From: Escherichia phage AV108
Length of the DNA: 64,000 bases
Sequence record: OR352938.1
Direction: 5' to 3' (one strand)
In this document: piece by piece, positions 1-52,276 of the stretch
How positions within the stretch are numbered: the stretch's first letter is position 1
Layout of the letters: each line of letters opens with the position of its first letter
Program-made: the position numbers and the translations under genes
The notes under the pieces: generated by a model
The model's database searches: none
What the model was told of the DNA's origin: nothing
The model's input: the letters and a program-made list of their open reading frames with translations, nothing else

Positions 1-3314
<3,314 letters not shown>

Positions 3315-3345: not shown

Positions 3346-5343
3346 ATGACTCTATTATCACCGGGTTTCGAAACGAAAGAAACTACTCTCTCCACTACCA
3401 TTGTGCAATCTGCGACTGGTCGCGCGGCGCTGGTAGGTAAATTTCAATGGGGTCCAGCTTTCCAGATTGTTCAAGTAACTAATGAAGTTGAATTAGTTAA
3501 TAAATTTGGTCAGCCGGATAATAACACCGCAGACTATTTCATGAGCGGGGCTAACTTCCTCCAGTATGGCAATGACCTGCGTGTTGTTCGTGTACTCAAT
3601 AAAGAAAAAGCAAAAAACGCAACTGTCCTAGCTGGTAACGTCGAGTTTGAAATCACAAACGAAGGTTCAAACTACAAAGTAGGCGATTCGATTAATGTAA
3701 AATACAACCGTCAGGAAGTTGAAACCGCTGGCAAAGTAACCAAAGTGGATGCCGAAGGTAAAATTAAAGGTATTTTCATCCCAACCGGGAAAATCATTGC
3801 TCTGGCTAAGTCCATTGGTGTTTACCCTAATCTGGATGGGTTTACCGCAGAAATCACTTCCGGCACTGGTAACTCAACTGCGGCGATCACCATTTCAAAA
3901 ATTGTTACCGATTCCGGTCTTCTCTTAACGGATCTGGAAACTTCCCGTGCCAATATCACAAATCAAACTTTCTTGACTAAACTCAAGAAGTATGATATGC
4001 CAGCAGTAAGCGCGATCTATGCTGGTGAGATCGGGGACTCTCTGGAAGTCGAGATCCTAGCACGTAGTGCGTTTAAGAACACCGCACCGGATCTGACAAT
4101 GTATCCTTACGGCGGTACTCGCACCGCAGCACGCAACCTGATTCCATATGCACCGCAGAATGATAATCAATATGCGTTTATTGTTCGTCGTGATGGTGTT
4201 GTGGTAGAATCCTATGTACTGTCTACTCTGAAAGGGGATAAAGACGTATACGGCAATTCTATCTATATGGACGACTTCTTTGCTCGTGGTTCTAGCCAGT
4301 ACATCTATGCAACCGCTCAGGGCTGGGTAGATGGTTTCAGTGGTATTATCTCTCTTGCTGGTGGTGTGTCTGCTAACGAAGCAACGATCGGTGGAGTTGG
4401 TGCTGATCCGTTCATCGGTGCGATGATGCAAGGTTGGGATCTGTTTGCTGAACGAGAATCTATTCACGTAAACCTGTTGATCGCTGGTGCATGTGCTGGC
4501 GAAGGCGATGCGTTCTCTACCGTACAGAAACATGCTGTTTCCATCGGTGATGAGCGTCAGGATTGCTTAGTAATGGTTTCTCCGCCGCGTAGCACTGTTG
4601 TTAATATTCCGGTGACTACTGCAATTGATAACCTGATTGCATGGCGCGAAGGTTCAGGAAACTATAATGAAAACAACATGAACATTAATACCACTTACGC
4701 GGTTATTGATGGTAACTACAAATATCAGTATGACAAATACAACGACGTAAACCGTTGGGTTCCGTTGGCTGCTGATATTGCTGGTTTGTGCGCTCGTACT
4801 GATGCTGTATCCCAGCCGTGGATGAGTCCGGCAGGTTATAACCGTGGTCAGATCATGAACGTGGTTAAACTGGCAATTGAGCCTCGCAAGGCGCACCGCG
4901 ATCGTCTGTATCAGGCCGCAATTAACCCGGTGATCGGTGCTGGTGGTGAAGGGTTTATCCTGATGGGTGATAAAACCGCTACGACTGTTCCTAGCCCGTT
5001 TGACCGCATTAACGTTCGTCGTCTGTTTAACATGCTGAAAAAGAATATCGGCGATTCAAGCAAATACAAACTGTTTGAAAACAATGATAACTTTACTCGC
5101 GCTTCCTTCCGTATGGAGGTTTCGCAATATCTCAGCACGATTCGCTCTCTGGGTGGCATTTATGACTTCCGAGTACAATGCGACACCACGAATAACACGC
5201 CGGATGTAATTGATCGTAACGAATTTGTTGCTAGTATGTTCATCAAACCAGCAAAATCGATCAACTATATCATGCTCAATTTCACTGCTGTTGCAACTGG
5301 TTCTGATTTTGACGAAATTATCGGTCCAGCTAACCAGGCATAA
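3346..5343 (+). CDS. 18: tail sheath protein (T4 gp18-like)
   Basis: 665-aa ORF, RBS GAGGAAA; size and position between 17 and 19 match T4 gp18 (659 aa). Confidence 0.9.
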   Translation: MTLLSPGFETKETTLSTTIVQSATGRAALVGKFQWGPAFQIVQVTNEVELVNKFGQPDNNTADYFMSGANFLQYGNDLRVVRVLNKEKAKNATVLAGNVEFEITNEGSNYKVGDSINVKYNRQEVETAGKVTKVDAEGKIKGIFIPTGKIIALAKSIGVYPNLDGFTAEITSGTGNSTAAITISKIVTDSGLLLTDLETSRANITNQTFLTKLKKYDMPAVSAIYAGEIGDSLEVEILARSAFKNTAPDLTMYPYGGTRTAARNLIPYAPQNDNQYAFIVRRDGVVVESYVLSTLKGDKDVYGNSIYMDDFFARGSSQYIYATAQGWVDGFSGIISLAGGVSANEATIGGVGADPFIGAMMQGWDLFAERESIHVNLLIAGACAGEGDAFSTVQKHAVSIGDERQDCLVMVSPPRSTVVNIPVTTAIDNLIAWREGSGNYNENNMNINTTYAVIDGNYKYQYDKYNDVNRWVPLAADIAGLCARTDAVSQPWMSPAGYNRGQIMNVVKLAIEPRKAHRDRLYQAAINPVIGAGGEGFILMGDKTATTVPSPFDRINVRRLFNMLKKNIGDSSKYKLFENNDNFTRASFRMEVSQYLSTIRSLGGIYDFRVQCDTTNNTPDVIDRNEFVASMFIKPAKSINYIMLNFTAVATGSDFDEIIGPANQA

Positions 5344-5377
5344 TCAGTAAATTAGCATAGATTAAAAGTTAAATCAA

Positions 5378-5396
5378 GCGGGGAGAAAATCCCCGC
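5378..5396 (+). other. intercistronic stem-loop GCGGGGAGAAAATCCCCGC
   Basis: Perfect 7-bp GC stem between genes 18 and 19; same module recurs at 5924 and, inverted, at 50002. Confidence 0.5.
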
Positions 5397-5416
5397 TCTA
5401 TTAAGGAATATCAATT

Positions 5417-5911
5417 ATGGCACTCGATTTGAATGATATTACACGCGGTTTCGAGTCTGGCGATTTTGCTCGTCCTAACCTGTTTGAAGTTGAGATCCCG
5501 TATCTGGGGCAAAACTTTAAGCTGATGTGTAAGGCTGCGACTGTCCCGGCTGCTACCGTAGAAAAAATTGCTATAGGCTATCAAAACCGTAAAATTAACA
5601 TCGCTGGCGACCGTGTATACGACGACTGGACCATCACTGTATTCAACGATGACGCACACAAGATCCGTGATGCTATCGTTGCATGGAGCGATCAGACACA
5701 CGGCACTGGTTCGGCGATCACGGGTGCAACTCCTGCACAATATAAGAAACAAGCTATTGTTCGTCAACTTAACCGTAACACCGAATCAACTAGCGAAAAA
5801 ACATTGTACGGTATTTTCCCGACCAACGTTGGTGAAGTAACCCTCGATTGGGAACAAAACAACGAAGTTGAAACGTTTGAAGTTACTTTTGCTATCGATT
5901 GGGTAGAATAA
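5417..5911 (+). CDS. 19: tail tube protein (T4 gp19-like)
   Basis: 164-aa ORF immediately after sheath gene; size and synteny match T4 gp19. Confidence 0.88.
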   Translation: MALDLNDITRGFESGDFARPNLFEVEIPYLGQNFKLMCKAATVPAATVEKIAIGYQNRKINIAGDRVYDDWTITVFNDDAHKIRDAIVAWSDQTHGTGSAITGATPAQYKKQAIVRQLNRNTESTSEKTLYGIFPTNVGEVTLDWEQNNEVETFEVTFAIDWVE

Positions 5912-5923
5912 ATATATTATCAT

Positions 5924-5942
5924 GCGGGGAGAAGTTCCCCGC
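5924..5942 (+). other. intercistronic stem-loop GCGGGGAGAAGTTCCCCGC
   Basis: Near-identical hairpin to 5378-5396, between genes 19 and 20. Confidence 0.5.
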
Positions 5943-8206: not shown

Positions 8207-8902
8207 ATGGAAAAGAACGAATTACTGATCGAACAATGGGGCGTTCCTTGTGCTCGCGGTAGTTCGTCATTGCTTGAATCATTTGATGATAAGGCTACAG
8301 GAAATCTCTATATTCAAGGGATTTTCCTGCAAGCCGAAACAGTAAACCGTAATAAACGCTGGTATCCTCGCAGTGTTCTAGAAAATGCGGTTACTAAATA
8401 CATACATGAACAAGTTGAGACACATCAAGCTCTAGGCGAACTTAATCACCCAGCAAGAGCAATGCCAGATCCATCTAATGCTTGCATCATAATTGAAAAA
8501 TTATGGTGGGAAGGTAATAACGTGATGGGTAAAGCCCGTGTTATTGAAGGGGATAAAGGCGCAGGTGATAAACTTGCTGCACTGATTCGCGCTGGCTGGA
8601 TTCCTGGCGTTTCTTCCCGTGGATTGGGTCGTTTGAAAGACTCAGGTCGCGGATACAATATTGTACAGGAAGGTTTTGTGTTGACGGTTGGTGTTGATGT
8701 TGTATGGGGTCCAAGCGCACCAGATGCGTGGGTAACTCCGGTGGTTGAGTCAACGGATAGCGATTCTAGCGCGTCGGACGCACCAGAAAGCGATAAAACC
8801 GAAAAAGTGACTAACCCTACAGCCTCACAACAAAACATCGTAGAATCGAATAATAGCGCGTTTATGGCGCTCGCAGAAGCGTTATCTAAACGCTATAAAT
8901 AA
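8207..8902 (+). CDS. 21: prohead core scaffold protease (T4 gp21-like)
   Basis: 231-aa ORF in conserved position before 22; assignment from synteny and size. Confidence 0.85.
   Translation: MEKNELLIEQWGVPCARGSSSLLESFDDKATGNLYIQGIFLQAETVNRNKRWYPRSVLENAVTKYIHEQVETHQALGELNHPARAMPDPSNACIIIEKLWWEGNNVMGKARVIEGDKGAGDKLAALIRAGWIPGVSSRGLGRLKDSGRGYNIVQEGFVLTVGVDVVWGPSAPDAWVTPVVESTDSDSSASDAPESDKTEKVTNPTASQQNIVESNNSAFMALAEALSKRYK
8894..8901 (+). promoter_or_regulatory. T4-type late promoter (TATAAATA) for gene 22
   Basis: Exact TATAAATA inside the 3' end of gene 21, about 33 nt upstream of gene 22 ATG. Confidence 0.5.
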
Positions 8903-9728: not shown

Positions 9729-9786
9729 TGCAATTCAAATCTACTAATAAATACTTTAGGTTAACAACAAACAAGGTTTAAAGAAC

Positions 9787-11370: not shown

Positions 11371-11454
11371 TATAAGCCATTCCGAAAAACTCCGGTCGGG
11401 TGCAATACCCGACTTATCATAAACCTTATGACAGTGTAAAGTGTTAATTCCAAA

Positions 11455-11483
11455 GGGAAGACTCGAAAGGGTCTTCCCTTTTT
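11455..11483 (+). terminator. rho-independent terminator after gene 23
   Basis: GGGAAGAC-loop-GTCTTCCC stem followed by TTTTT, 85 nt after gene 23 stop. Confidence 0.75.
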
Positions 11484-11499
11484 GCGTATTATATCTCGT

Positions 11500-11507
11500 T
11501 ATAAATA
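11500..11507 (+). promoter_or_regulatory. T4-type late promoter (TATAAATA)
   Basis: Exact TATAAATA just after the gene 23 terminator, upstream of two small + ORFs. Confidence 0.4.
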
Positions 11508-17749: not shown

Positions 17750-17787
17750 TTTGTATACTGTATTTATTGCATACGGAGATTTTTACT

Positions 17788-18519
17788 ATGGCTAAAAGAT
17801 TTCATTATGTTTATGAGATAAAGAATCTTGTAAACGGCAAACTGTATATAGGTAAACATTCTACTAACAATATGCATGATGGATATATGGGGTCTGGTGA
17901 CCTTCTTCGTGCTGCATTTGAAAAATATGGCATTGAGAACTTCGAGAAGCGCATATTAAAAATGTTTGATACCGAGCAAGATGCTTACCTATACGAAAAA
18001 GAACTTGTCACTGTTGACATTGTAAAAGATCCCAATTATTATAATGTAGTTACTGGCGGTCGTTATGACGGAGACCAAGTATACTCAGACTCTGTACGCG
18101 CTAAAATGTCTTCTTCTGCCAAAGAGCGCGTAGAACGTGATATGAAAACTGGAAAACTAAAAAAAGCCATAGTAGGTATGCGAGAGAGTGTTTCCGGTAG
18201 CTCATGGTACAATGACGGTGTTAAATCTATACGAGTTCGAGATGGAGAAACTCCACCTGACGGATTCGTCAAGGGTAATTTACATGCTGGATGGGACCAT
18301 ATAGAATGGACGGAGGAACGCAAAGCCGCTAACAGGGAAATGTGTCTAAGACAAGTCCAAAAGGATCGTGAGTCCGGTGCTCTCGCCGAGCGTGTAGCAA
18401 GGCTTAACGATTTTCATACTGGCAGTAAGTGGTATAACAACGGGGTAGTTAATAAGGTCGTGAAACGCGGCGATACCCCTCCTGATGGTTTTGTTCTTGG
18501 AAAACTTGTTAAAAGGTGA
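17788..18519 (+). CDS. GIY-YIG homing endonuclease (Seg-like)
   Basis: N-terminal FHYVYEIKNLVNGKLYIGKHS (GIY-YIG motif); occupies T4 segE position; ATG 17788 with GGAG RBS (track start is TTG). Confidence 0.75.
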   Translation: MAKRFHYVYEIKNLVNGKLYIGKHSTNNMHDGYMGSGDLLRAAFEKYGIENFEKRILKMFDTEQDAYLYEKELVTVDIVKDPNYYNVVTGGRYDGDQVYSDSVRAKMSSSAKERVERDMKTGKLKKAIVGMRESVSGSSWYNDGVKSIRVRDGETPPDGFVKGNLHAGWDHIEWTEERKAANREMCLRQVQKDRESGALAERVARLNDFHTGSKWYNNGVVNKVVKRGDTPPDGFVLGKLVKR

Positions 18520-32204: not shown

Positions 32205-32234
32205 ATTATAGGGGATCACCGATCCCCCTGTCAA
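32205..32234 (-). promoter_or_regulatory. sigma70-like early promoter with palindromic spacer (PeSL-type)
   Basis: TTGACA - GGGGGATCGGTGATCCCC - TATAAT on minus strand; spacer is an inverted repeat with two GATC. Confidence 0.65.
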
Positions 32235-49078: not shown

Positions 49079-49753
49079 TCACATATTCCTCATTTTACAG
49101 TTATCAAAGTGCCATCGTAGAGCATTGCCTTTATTGGTAATTTTACCGCAATGCGGACAAGGATCTGCCACTGTTGCTTCCTTTGTCCTTTGTGCAATCA
49201 GCTTTATCATTTCCTCGCTATGTGGTATTCCTTTAGTTGGCGATGGTTTCCCAAACATAGGATTTTTACTTCCCATTCTAGCTTTTGAAATGTTTAACGC
49301 GTGCTCCTTTGTTTTTGGCTTACGCATTTTAGCTTTTGTCTCTTCTGATTTCAACACACCTTTCGAAGATTCGCTAATCTTTCTTCGCGTTTCTTCTTTC
49401 ATCGGCTTGCCCTTTCTTTGTTCAGAGATAAGTACCCTAGCTTGTTCATATACCCTAGACGAAACAATATAATCTCTTTTATTGGTCTTCGCATTTTTTG
49501 CTAAACACATCATACCAAATGCTTGTGCCATAGGTCCACCATGAATTTTTGCTAGCAGATGATGAATCACGAAATGTTCTTTTGCTGTCAAATCAATCAG
49601 GTTATCAACTTCATCACCGCCACCCATAGATCTCGGTAAAATATGATGTGTTTCCTTATATCCTTCAACGGTTCCTCTTATCTTTGCTTTTTCTATGATT
49701 GCGTCATGTAATTTTTGTAAGTTCATGAATAAATCCTCGTTTCTGTATACCAT
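49079..49753 (-). CDS. HNH homing endonuclease with NUMOD-like repeats (MobE-like position)
   Basis: HHILPRSMGGGDEVDNLIDLTAKEHFVIHH (HNH) plus repeated basic KG.P...ET..KIS motifs; sits between nrdA and nrdB; start may be Met10 (49726). Confidence 0.7.
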   Translation of the reverse strand: MVYRNEDLFMNLQKLHDAIIEKAKIRGTVEGYKETHHILPRSMGGGDEVDNLIDLTAKEHFVIHHLLAKIHGGPMAQAFGMMCLAKNAKTNKRDYIVSSRVYEQARVLISEQRKGKPMKEETRRKISESSKGVLKSEETKAKMRKPKTKEHALNISKARMGSKNPMFGKPSPTKGIPHSEEMIKLIAQRTKEATVADPCPHCGKITNKGNALRWHFDNCKMRNM

Positions 49754-49823: not shown

Positions 49824-49964
49824 TCAGGAAGAATCGCCCATTCTACAACCGTATTCATCCTCGACGTAGTAGCAAGTCCCATCATGTCGAGCATCATATT
49901 CATCACCAACAACAAAGCTATCAGCTAGCTCAAAATCTACAGCAACACATTTTAATTTGGTCAT
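49824..49964 (-). CDS. hypothetical small protein (46 aa)
   Basis: ATG 49964 with GAGG RBS, downstream of promoter 49996-50024. Confidence 0.35.
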   Translation of the reverse strand: MTKLKCVAVDFELADSFVVGDEYDARHDGTCYYVEDEYGCRMGDSS

Positions 49965-49995: not shown

Positions 49996-50024
49996 ATTAT
50001 AGCGGGGATTTCTCCCCGCGTCAA
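49996..50024 (-). promoter_or_regulatory. sigma70-like early promoter with palindromic spacer (PeSL-type)
   Basis: TTGACG - CGGGGAGAAATCCCCGC - TATAAT on minus strand; spacer is the same hairpin module as after genes 18 and 19. Confidence 0.6.
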
Positions 50025-50032
50025 CACTTATT

Positions 50033-52276
50033 TTACAGCTTGCAAGATGAGCACTCGCTAGCGTCTTCCGTACCATCAGCACCGTCGCGAACGTTCGCAT
50101 AATACAGGGTTTTCAGACCGTAATATTGAGCAAACAACATATCATCTAACACATCAGCAATATCGACTTTACCAGTCTTATAAGTGCTTGGATCGTATGA
50201 TGTATTGGAACTAATCGCCTGATCCACAAACTTCTGCATGATCGCTGCCAGTGTCAGATAAGGCTTGTTACCTTTCTTGATCAGTGTCCAAAGCAGGTCA
50301 ATAACATCAGCATTATTCTCTACGTTCGGAATAACCTGATTAAATTGCCCTTCTTTCGATCCTTTAACCGATACAATACCGCGAGGCGGTTCAATACCGT
50401 TTGTGCTGTTAGATACCTGAGAAGACGACTCACAAGGCATCAGAGCCGAAAGCGTACTGTTACGAATGCCATATTTTTTCAGGTCTTCGCGCAGTTCTTC
50501 CCAATCCATCTCATATACCGGATCAACCAGTTCATCTACTGTCTTTTTGTACCAGTCGATAGGCAGTTCACCGCGTCCATAACGTGTTTCGTGCATCAGT
50601 TCGCAAGCACCCTTCTCTTTAGCCAGTTGCACACTAGCCTTAATCAGAGCATATTGCAAGCGTTCAAACGTTTTATGCGTAAACTCGTTAGCGTCTTCAT
50701 ATGTGAAGAAATTATCCGCGAGATACGATGCAAAGTTAGTCACCCCAACACCCAGAGAGCGACGTTTTTTGGATGTCAGAGCTTGCTCTACAGGATAATC
50801 CTGGTAATCTAACAGGTTGTCAAGTGCACGCACCATAACCATAGCAATGCGTTCTACTTCTTCCATATTTTCGATATCAAAGTTTCCTAAAACATATGCT
50901 GCCAAAGTACATAGGCTGATCTCTGAATCATCACGACCCATCGGTTTTGTAGGCAGAGCAATTTCACAACACAGGTTGGATTGTTTAATCGGTGCTACAT
51001 TACGAATAAACGCCCCGTGATTGTTCATGTTGTCTGTGAACGTTGGGTAGATTCGACCAGTGTTAAAACGTTCAATTGCCACCGCTAAAAACAGGTCTTC
51101 GGCTTTAACACGAGTTTTACGAACACTCGGATCTTTTTCCAGTTTTTCGTAAAGCTGGCGGAAACCTTCCTCATCTCGGAAGTATAGATCCCACAACAAG
51201 CCACCTGCAACATCTGGACTAAACAGAGTAATGTAATCCCGTTTAAGGAATCGCTCTACCATCAGGTTATTAATCTGTACGCCGTAATCAAGATGACGAA
51301 TGCGGTTATCTTCCACCCCCTTATTGTTCTTTAACACAATCAGACTTTCAAACTCTAAATGCCACATTGGGTAATAGAGAGTCGCCGCCCCGCCACGAAT
51401 ACCGCCTTGTGAGCATGACTTAACGGCAGTCTGAAAATGTTTCCAGAATGGGATAACGCCAGTATGACGAACTTCACCATGCCCGATCTTAGATCCTTCC
51501 GCGCGAATCATGCCAGCGTTGATACCGATACCAGCACGCTTGCTAATATACTTGATGATTGCATTTGCTGTTTCGTTGATGCCCTGCAATGAGTCATCAC
51601 TTTCAATCACCACACACGAACTAAATTGGCGTGTTGGGGTACGCACACCTGCCATAATCGGAGTAGGCAGAGAGATTTGCTTATTCGCAACAGCATTATA
51701 AAAATCAATCACATGTTCAAGTCTATTTTCGGTCTCTTCTTGATGCAAGCACATACCGATCAGCATATACGCAAATTGCGGTGTTTCGATGATTTTCTTA
51801 GTGCTGCGATCCTGAACAAGATATTTCTCTTTTAACTGCATCGCACCAGCATAGGTCATTTTAAAATCAAGTTTATGGTCGATGAATTTCTCCAGATATT
51901 CCACTTCTTCACGGGAATACTTTTGCAGAATTTCGCGATCATATTTTCCGATTGCAATATTACGCTCAATATGGCTATAAAAATCAATAGGTTGGAATTG
52001 ACCGTATACTGATTTACGAAGCGCGAACATTGCAAGGTTACTTGCTACATATTGATAATCGGGTGTTTCTACCGTGATGTTATCTGCGGCGACCTTAATC
52101 AATACTTTCTGGATATCATTGGTAGACATACCTTCTGTCAGAAGTGGTTCAACCATATCAAACAATTCATATGGATCAACGTTATGACCTTCGGCTGCCG
52201 CTTCCAGAATTTTCATTACTTTTTCTTTTTCAAACGGAACAGTCAGACCGGAAGACTTAACAACATTTTTAATCAT
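50033..52276 (-). CDS. nrdA: ribonucleotide reductase large subunit
   Basis: 747 aa (T4 NrdA about 754); N-terminal ATP-cone-like region; neighbour of nrdB. Confidence 0.88.
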   Translation of the reverse strand: MIKNVVKSSGLTVPFEKEKVMKILEAAAEGHNVDPYELFDMVEPLLTEGMSTNDIQKVLIKVAADNITVETPDYQYVASNLAMFALRKSVYGQFQPIDFYSHIERNIAIGKYDREILQKYSREEVEYLEKFIDHKLDFKMTYAGAMQLKEKYLVQDRSTKKIIETPQFAYMLIGMCLHQEETENRLEHVIDFYNAVANKQISLPTPIMAGVRTPTRQFSSCVVIESDDSLQGINETANAIIKYISKRAGIGINAGMIRAEGSKIGHGEVRHTGVIPFWKHFQTAVKSCSQGGIRGGAATLYYPMWHLEFESLIVLKNNKGVEDNRIRHLDYGVQINNLMVERFLKRDYITLFSPDVAGGLLWDLYFRDEEGFRQLYEKLEKDPSVRKTRVKAEDLFLAVAIERFNTGRIYPTFTDNMNNHGAFIRNVAPIKQSNLCCEIALPTKPMGRDDSEISLCTLAAYVLGNFDIENMEEVERIAMVMVRALDNLLDYQDYPVEQALTSKKRRSLGVGVTNFASYLADNFFTYEDANEFTHKTFERLQYALIKASVQLAKEKGACELMHETRYGRGELPIDWYKKTVDELVDPVYEMDWEELREDLKKYGIRNSTLSALMPCESSSQVSNSTNGIEPPRGIVSVKGSKEGQFNQVIPNVENNADVIDLLWTLIKKGNKPYLTLAAIMQKFVDQAISSNTSYDPSTYKTGKVDIADVLDDMLFAQYYGLKTLYYANVRDGADGTEDASECSSCKL

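Follow-up and report, generated by a model that had tools for sequence, protein, structure and literature searches.

The window analysed here, a stretch of 64,000 nucleotides from Escherichia phage AV108 (OR352938.1), begins with the terminase genes and carries g17-g18-g19-g20 in this order, as read from the list of open reading frames and from the annotation of phage Cognac. The phage is a Krischvirus, an RB49-like T4-type phage of the family Straboviridae; between bases 3000 and 8000 its identity with such phages amounts to 97-99% and is highest with Cognac (99.1%). Three hairpins with a common stem lie in this window: two in the late spacers behind g18 and g19, and one behind nrdA on the opposite strand, inside a promoter-early stem-loop (PeSL). 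The relevant features are listed below in window coordinates.

3307..3314, plus strand: TATAAATA, a late promoter of consensus sequence ahead of g18; its RB49 counterpart is the prediction Pl:86777
3346..5343, plus strand: g18, tail sheath (open reading frame list and Cognac annotation)
5377..5397, plus strand: hairpin 1 after g18, AGCGGGGA-GAAAA-TCCCCGCT, with an 8-bp stem and a 5-nt loop
5417..5911, plus strand: g19, tail tube (open reading frame list and Cognac annotation), with the Shine-Dalgarno sequence AAGGA at 5403-5407
5907..5914, plus strand: candidate late promoter AATAAATA, a motif match with A at -13 that runs across the g19 stop codon
5924..5942, plus strand: hairpin 2 after g19, GCGGGGAGAAGTTCCCCGC, read as GCGGGGA-GAAGT-TCCCCGC, with a 7-bp stem and a 5-nt loop
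5970..7535, plus strand: g20, portal (open reading frame list and Cognac annotation)
49079-49753: HNH homing endonuclease gene, next after the 46-aa ORFan and followed by nrdB
49824..49964, minus strand: 46-aa ORFan, served by the PeSL promoter
49996..50024, minus strand: PeSL, with the -35 box TTGACG at 50024-50019, the hairpin at 50019-50002 and the -10 box TATAAT at 50001-49996
50033..52276, minus strand: nrdA, the transcript of which would stop at or cross the PeSL hairpin

An earlier note on this DNA had placed the hairpins at 5378-5396, at 5924-5942 and, on the minus strand, at 49996-50024, and had claimed that one hairpin module recurs after g18, after g19 and within an early promoter. 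The positions are correct and a common 7-bp stem is found in the sequence at all three of them, whereas none of 100 dinucleotide shuffles contained two or more matches to the stem pattern (expected count 0.00). The stems comprise 7-8 bp with six G-C pairs and are closed by a short loop, which is the stem feature of intrinsic terminators. Folded in isolation, the three hairpins have energies between -13.7 and -15.9 kcal/mol; compared with shuffles, their z-scores lie between -3.2 and -4.6. A search of the whole window against Rfam gave no match at the gathering score, and the segment 5200-6100 gave a single match at chance level (a Listeria sRNA, E 0.26).

Hairpin 1 is the more stable of the two late hairpins (-15.9 kcal/mol, z -4.6), and an A-T pair on either side of GCGGGGAGAAAATCCCCGC (5378-5396) extends its stem to 8 bp (5377-5397). 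It starts 34 nt past the g18 stop and ends 5 nt ahead of the Shine-Dalgarno sequence of g19. Hairpin 2 (-13.7 kcal/mol) starts 13 nt past the g19 stop and ends 28 nt ahead of the g20 ATG. The plus-strand tail of hairpin 1 is CTATTAAG and that of hairpin 2 is CTAATTTC, in which the three bases adjoining the stem are CUA; a clear U-run is absent from both, as the earlier note had remarked, and the reading of the late hairpins as non-canonical gene-end elements is supported. Existing labels differ between records. In the GenBank record of G2248 both late hairpins are putative terminators, while that of Makalu_001 labels hairpin 1 as a terminator on the minus strand, where its tail GATTTAACTT is more T-rich and where a simple scan also flagged it as terminator-like. 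Hairpin 1 is not among the RB49 terminators of Nolan et al. (2006, PMC1524935). Hairpin 2 coincides exactly with the RB49 terminator '19-->20' at 89423-89441 (window 5300 mapping to RB49 88799), predicted there by TransTerm with a score of 100, so that it is already known at its exact bases as a 2006 prediction (Nolan et al., 2006, PMC1524935). As a terminator it is borderline: a loose scan and TransTerm accept it, but CUA adjoins its stem. A riboswitch-like pairing of GGGAGAA in hairpin 2 with a downstream TTCTCCC was rejected, as it gives a weaker helix, is not the predicted fold and is lost in JK32.

The third hairpin is of a different kind. GCGGGGA-GAAA-TCCCCGC (7-bp stem, GAAA loop; -15.1 kcal/mol, z -4.0) fills the 17-nt spacer of the promoter TTGACG-17-TATAAT, a sigma-70 -35/-10 pair that scores 11/12 and has a spacer within the 16-18 nt range; the plus strand at 50002-50019 reads GCGGGGATTTCTCCCCGC. 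The claim that the reverse complement of the stem-loop forms the spacer of a minus-strand promoter at 49996-50024 was thus accurate. The site is intergenic, 14 nt past the nrdA stop and upstream of the Shine-Dalgarno sequence and ATG of the 46-aa ORFan. Its tail, TATAATAC, has no U-tract next to the stem. It is labelled as a promoter in the record of GEC-3S and as a terminator in that of Makalu_001. About 50 such PeSL cassettes have been described in RB49 and phi1, where they occupy spacers that precede ORFans. Reporter assays of the members 193/192, 206/205 and 211/210 revealed promoter as well as terminator/attenuator activity (Arbiol et al., 2010, PMC2839356). The stem-loop of one PeSL lowered the expression of lacZ to much the same extent as rrnB T1 did (PMC2839356; PMC4122927). 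PeSLs are also recombination substrates, and in RB49 a PeSL crossover was mapped within the loop (Arbiol et al., 2010, PMC2839356). Site 3 possesses all published sequence features of the PeSLs of RB49 and phi1 (PMC2839356; Comeau et al., 2014, PMC4122927): sigma-70 boxes, a G-run/C-run hairpin between the boxes, which is the commonest subclass, an intergenic location with a small ORFan, its Shine-Dalgarno sequence and its ATG to follow and, in some strains, an indel boundary nearby. It belongs to the published class by every sequence feature, the activity having been assayed for other members. In four relatives the homology with the window stops at the edge of this PeSL, beside a methyltransferase gene, and the element thus behaves as described in the PeSL papers. 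The copy is present in all of eight Krischvirus genomes and is invariant in sequence. At least five other PeSLs lie on the minus strand of the window, their stems being of other types (GGGGATC and AGGGGAG), and the GCGGGGA stem occurs among PeSLs only in the nrdA PeSL and in one degenerate PeSL at RB49 103108. Hairpins 1 and 2, unlike PeSLs, lie within the conserved late virion module, face late genes and have no sigma-70 promoter; the sole plus-strand sigma-70-like match near them (9/12 at 5889-5918) lies in a region where matches of this kind are no commoner than in shuffles.

The late hairpins find their counterparts in other T4-type phages. We collected from viral contigs 77 loci around gp19 homologues (54-100% amino-acid identity) and examined the spacers on either side, counting distinct flanks and accepting hairpins of -8 kcal/mol or better. 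A hairpin was found after g18 in 59 of 71 distinct g18-g19 spacers, compared with 3.8 in shuffles, and after g19 in 51 of 56 distinct flanks, compared with 1.2. The inner stem arms differ between lineages, 25 different ones being present after g18 and 26 after g19. Since the position is kept while the stem sequences are unrelated, the hairpin sites appear to be old and only their sequence to have turned over. A perfect stem is the same on both strands, so that only the loop distinguishes them, and UNCG or GNRA loops were sense-oriented in 36 of the distinct hairpins and antisense in one; this bias implies that the element works as RNA in the late message. Five or more T within the 8-nt tail were found in only one of 44 distinct post-g18 hairpins and in eight of 36 post-g19 hairpins, and T downstream is close to background. 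A upstream amounts to 3.1-3.9 per 8 nt against a background of 2.7-2.9. A late promoter adjoins many of the hairpins, either before or behind them. In T4 the hairpin behind g18 is GGCCTGTttcgGCAGGCC and that behind g19 is ATGGGGAgaaaTCCCCAT, the latter having the core GGGGA-GAAA-TCCCC in common with the hairpin of the window. Structured intergenic stem-loops in T4 have been remarked upon previously (PMC1702504). The extra-stable UUCG/GNRA hairpins of T4 mRNA described in PMC4371310 (citing Tuerk et al., 1988) correspond to those seen here in their positions and, in most relatives, in their sense-oriented loop classes. Most relatives carry such extra-stable tetraloops, whereas the late hairpins of the window are pentaloops (GAAAA, GAAGT) that lack the tetraloop sense signal and vary freely between strains. 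Judged by position and structure, hairpins 1 and 2 represent in Krischvirus the gene-end RNA hairpins that are conserved among T4-type phages.

Within the genus, both late hairpins are present in all of 22 Krischvirus genomes; their stems are invariant and the rest of both spacers almost so, and the variation is concentrated in the loops. The alleles of the hairpin 1 loop are the following.

GAAAA: 13 genomes, the same as in the window
GAAGT: 5 genomes, identical to the loop of hairpin 2
TTTTC: 2 genomes (JSE and Skers), the exact reverse complement of GAAAA
GAAA: 1 genome, identical to the PeSL loop at window position 50002, minus strand
TAAAA: 1 genome, a single-base change

In 21 genomes the loop of hairpin 2 reads GAAGT; the remaining genome has TTAT. 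A metagenome scan for further alleles of hairpin 1 yielded one contig only; IMG/VR contains only two Krischvirus contigs. Fixed stems with variable loops are what would be expected if only the helix matters. Multi-base changes that copy the loop of a neighbour or invert a loop point to gene conversion together with template switching at the palindrome, and the swaps between strains suggest local gene conversion and loop flipping, consistent with the RB49 PeSL crossover that was mapped inside a loop (PMC2839356). General hypervariability of the loops was not supported, given that the loop of the PeSL copy is invariant in eight genomes, presumably because its spacer must remain 17 nt. The loop variation is the only part of these observations for which we could not find a description elsewhere, and it is a minor point.

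Whether the late hairpins stop transcription depends on where transcripts begin. Apart from the promoter at 3307, no consensus late promoter precedes g18, g19 or g20, and the next one, at 8894, lies before g22; both agree with the published RB49 predictions. Between 3315 and 5906 the plus strand contains no match to [T/A]ATAAATA, and g19 is thus without a late promoter of its own, which implies that hairpin 1 must be mostly read through. The record of GEC-3S annotates 144 protomers for the sheath and 144 for the tube. With both proteins annotated as equimolar (1:1), hairpin 1 would be neither a strong terminator nor a setter of the sheath:tube ratio, and the proposal of the earlier note that the hairpins set this stoichiometry did not hold, given these protomer numbers and the promoterless g19. 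Attenuation is called for only at the step from g19 to g20, where a high-copy tube gene is followed by a low-copy portal gene. As to termination, canonical A-tract/U-tract terminators of the same genome look different, for example the one after g23 (11452-11481), and hairpins 1 and 2 are unlike intrinsic terminators of T4 and E. coli in being without the defining poly(U) tract; lacking a proper U-tract, they would be at most weak, leaky terminators. Hairpin 2 does resemble the predicted terminators of Nolan et al. (2006, PMC1524935) in its G+C stem, its short loop and its spacer between co-directional genes, and in view of its TransTerm score of 100 its termination may be stronger than assumed here.

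Partial termination at a poor U-tract has a precedent in T4, where, according to the review in PMC2988022, the weak-U-tract terminator of mobE between nrdA and nrdB stops about 30% of the transcripts and is thought to balance the two genes. It resembles the late hairpins in the poor U-tract and would do so in partial termination; unlike them, it lies inside a coding region and its activity was measured. Stabilisation of the upstream message is the other function to be considered. The intercistronic 3' stabiliser hairpins and REP sequences of E. coli operons such as malE-malF are stable stem-loops without a U-tract, located between co-transcribed genes that are needed unequally. The late hairpins are likewise U-tract-free stem-loops between co-transcribed genes; unlike REP, they are much shorter and do not form a dispersed repeat family with conserved flanks. 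Hairpins 1 and 2 could accordingly be read as attenuators or as stability elements. Two kinds of processing were considered and rejected. RegB targets early mRNA and requires single-stranded GGAGAAUAAAA, a GGAG within a structure being resistant; in all three copies the GGAG lies at the stem/loop junction, and this nuclease was discarded. Substrates of RNase III have stems far longer than 7-8 bp, and the stems found here are far too short for it. A literature search turned up neither a Krischvirus transcriptome nor a 3'-end (termination-site) map for T4.

We propose, with a probability of roughly 0.6, that hairpins 1 and 2 punctuate the late g18-g19-g20 transcript as leaky terminators and as barriers to 3' decay, and that the third copy is a PeSL. 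This proposal starts from the anatomy of the hairpins, the conservation of their position, the strand bias of the loops, the lack of a U-tract and the absence of a g19 promoter, all of which are observed; partial termination and protection from decay are what we infer. Both hairpins would form in the sense strand of the late mRNA, where they would act at most as weak, leaky terminators and would also block 3'-to-5' exonucleases, so that the g18 and g18-19 parts of the mRNA would be longer-lived or more abundant than the g20 part that follows. Hairpin 1 would be mostly read through, g19 relying on the promoter of g18, and hairpin 2 would mark the point where output falls, between tail genes of high copy and a portal gene of low copy. 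At site 3 the PeSL hairpin would end nrdA transcription and the sigma-70 promoter would restart it for the next early gene. The common stem would represent the preferred G-run/C-run hairpin type of this genome, locally homogenised by gene conversion, and no transposing element would be involved.

The alternative that we take most seriously, although only as a tentative one, concerns the 5' end of the g20 message: AATAAATA, located 9 nt before hairpin 2, would start g20 transcripts at about 5920, and hairpin 2, lying 2-5 nt from this predicted start, would mainly be a 5'-terminal stabiliser that shields the transcript from 5'-end-dependent cleavage by RNase E. The position of AATAAATA suggests such an additional or alternative role, which could be compatible with the leaky-terminator proposal; if AATAAATA is a real promoter, hairpin 2 could be the end of a g18-19 transcription unit. 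The same A(-13) variant, at 9746-9753, is the sole late-promoter-like motif before the major capsid gene g23, and late promoters of RB49 often have A at -13, as do 9 of 50 in T4. Moreover, in several lineages (for example the loci L016, L033 and L035) TATAAATA is followed 8 nt on by a hairpin after g19, and one further locus (L038) carries AATAAATA at that position. On the other hand, AATAAATA at 5907 is absent from the 17 late promoters predicted in RB49 by Nolan et al. (PMC1524935), the window contains only 79 one-mismatch matches to TATAAATA where chance would give 125, T4 and many lineages have the promoter after the hairpin instead, and hairpin 1 would be left unexplained. That the hairpins are efficient intrinsic terminators which end the g18 and g19 transcripts outright appears improbable to us. 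The TransTerm score of hairpin 2, the terminator labels in GenBank records and the rrnB T1-like effect of one PeSL stem-loop on lacZ speak for it, but the bases adjoining the stem of hairpin 2 are CUA instead of U, most orthologous hairpins are without a U-tract, and g19 is promoterless yet needed 1:1 with g18. It is still more doubtful that the hairpins halt antisense ('anti-late') transcription which arises at early promoters of the opposite strand and runs into late genes. Late regions of T4 are transcribed from both strands at different times, and such a role would fit the T-rich, terminator-like minus-strand tail of hairpin 1 and its label in Makalu_001; hairpin 2, however, has no T-rich tail on that strand, upstream A is barely above background across the family, and the special loops are sense-oriented by 36 to 1. 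We regard as very improbable an action of the palindromes as DNA, that is, as sites for dimeric proteins, cruciforms or recombination signals. The inverted repeats are perfect and, as the inverted loop of JSE and Skers shows, the DNA palindrome takes an active part in mutation, but the family-wide strand bias of the loops favours RNA and the stems are wholly different between related phages. A dimeric DNA-binding site in particular was rejected: the distance between the half-sites is 3, 4 or 5 nt, depending on the copy and the strain, a variation incompatible with binding by a dimer.

The earlier note had gone further and had taken the copy within the promoter as evidence of a mobile stem-loop module that does not depend on its promoter context and which would have been copied into two late spacers and an early promoter irrespective of the surroundings. 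Additional copies do exist, as the genome-wide search that it proposed revealed. The GCGGGGA stem occurs five times in the full RB49 genome: after g18, after g19, between genes 36 and 37 of the tail fibre, within a terminator that separates convergent genes, and in the nrdA PeSL. The identical 7-bp stem with a loop beginning GAA at all three sites of the window, the occurrence of the hairpin 2 loop in hairpin 1 of 5/22 genomes, an identical 20-nt hairpin found after g19 in one locus (L013) and after g18 in another (L014), and the known recombination of PeSLs with a crossover inside the loop (PMC2839356) are likewise in favour of copying. Nevertheless, similarity among the five RB49 copies ends at the edges of the hairpin and the flanks are unrelated, so that homology beyond the palindrome, as in REP- or MITE-like elements, was not found; nor was presence/absence polymorphism, both late hairpins being present in 22/22 genomes and the PeSL in 8/8. 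Nearly all T4-type phages have hairpins at both late positions with unrelated stems, and the bare stem is generic, being present in at least 120 unrelated viral contigs, a lower bound in this search. At a threshold of -9 kcal/mol, RB49 contains 70 perfect hairpins; intergenic DNA, roughly 8% of its genome, accounts for about 50 of them. The promoter copy, offered as proof of mobility, is a published PeSL, and most PeSLs of this genome have other stems. We therefore consider a mobile module to be a poor explanation. What stands is the idea that copies exchange sequence, as suggested by the loop alleles common to hairpins 1 and 2; a transposing module does not. An extended version, in which the GCGGGGA hairpins are recombination-active modules of short homology, with gene conversion of loops, template-switch flips, PeSL-type shuffling that reaches the conserved late operon beyond the hyperplastic early regions and possibly excision of a g19 mini-circle between the two 19-nt direct repeats, seems to us unlikely, if somewhat less so than mobility.

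The three hairpins fall under kinds that are already known, one PeSL and two gene-end hairpins of the late operon, and the significance of this work lies mostly in annotation, in that three palindromes are placed under known headings. For the T4-type phages in general, the finding that these hairpins are sense-oriented, conserved in position and mostly free of a U-tract implies that automatic "terminator" labels are probably too strong. In Krischvirus, the fixed stems with loop swaps and an exact loop inversion provide a natural example of palindrome-driven mutation, and the loop changes may represent concerted evolution of regulatory hairpins.

The early-promoter stem-loop (PeSL) of the window at 49996-50024 on the minus strand, located 14 nt after nrdA and before a 46-aa ORFan, lies at a point of variation among related genomes. 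On its nrdA side, at about window position 50037, homology to the window ends in four Krischvirus genomes (OR896825, OR896826, OR525698 and OZ035795), and in all four a DNA cytosine methyltransferase gene is found at the break, which is an indel boundary at a PeSL. The 46-aa ORFan precedes a further gene of this region:

49079-49753, minus strand, HNH homing endonuclease (phrog_655), between nrdA and nrdB

The mobE gene of T4 likewise lies between nrdA and nrdB. Further PeSLs were found on the minus strand at 32211, 34343, 34588, 37870 and 39015, each with a hairpin that separates a gtcaac (-35) box from a tataat-like (-10) box; their stems belong to the GGGGATC and AGGGGAG families and not to the GCGGGGA family of the hairpins after g18 and g19.

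Two other genes of the window are associated with sequences resembling homing endonucleases:

495-3311, g17, terminase large subunit
17767-18519, homing-endonuclease-like ORF (phrog_314)

Within g17, an in-frame insertion of 331 aa (987-1979), which is absent from phage Cognac and appears to be common to MIZ4 and MIZ5, interrupts the Walker A motif of the terminase (SRQLGK|TT). With a C-terminal end of ...THN followed by T and a Pfam match to LAGLIDADG, the insertion resembles an intein that carries a homing endonuclease. The phrog_314 ORF is located directly upstream of the uvsW-like helicase gene and overlaps it.

The major capsid gene is followed by two unlike hairpins, one without a U-tract at 11395-11413 (GTCGGGTgcaatACCCGAC) and the other, at 11452-11481, a canonical terminator with both A-tract and U-tract, downstream of which a consensus late promoter is found at 11500.

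The spacer between g18 and g19 is a repeated insertion site for an additional ORF (phage phiS, L202; also L212, L021, L026, L031, L033, L045 and L054). In phiS (851-1545 of L202), the inserted ORF encodes a hypothetical protein of 200 aa. Since this insert carries its own hairpin upstream, GGGGGAGgtcaaCTCCCCC, and since hairpin 1, the stem-loop after g18, follows the 3' junction of the insert at a distance of 5 nt, each gene there retains a 3' hairpin.

An additional hairpin copy, AGCGGGGAttatcTCCCCGCT, with an 8-bp stem identical to that of hairpin 1, was found slightly past the window end in RB49 (OZ035808, 64920-64940; 14920-14940 of L209), between the tail-fibre genes 36 and 37 and followed by TTTTCTAAATAA. 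Moreover, the 20-nt hairpin TAAAGGCCgaaaGGCCTTTA follows g19 in one phage (L013) and, in identical form, g18 in a related phage (L014). Its occurrence at both positions is another hint that gene-end hairpins may have been exchanged or may have converged.
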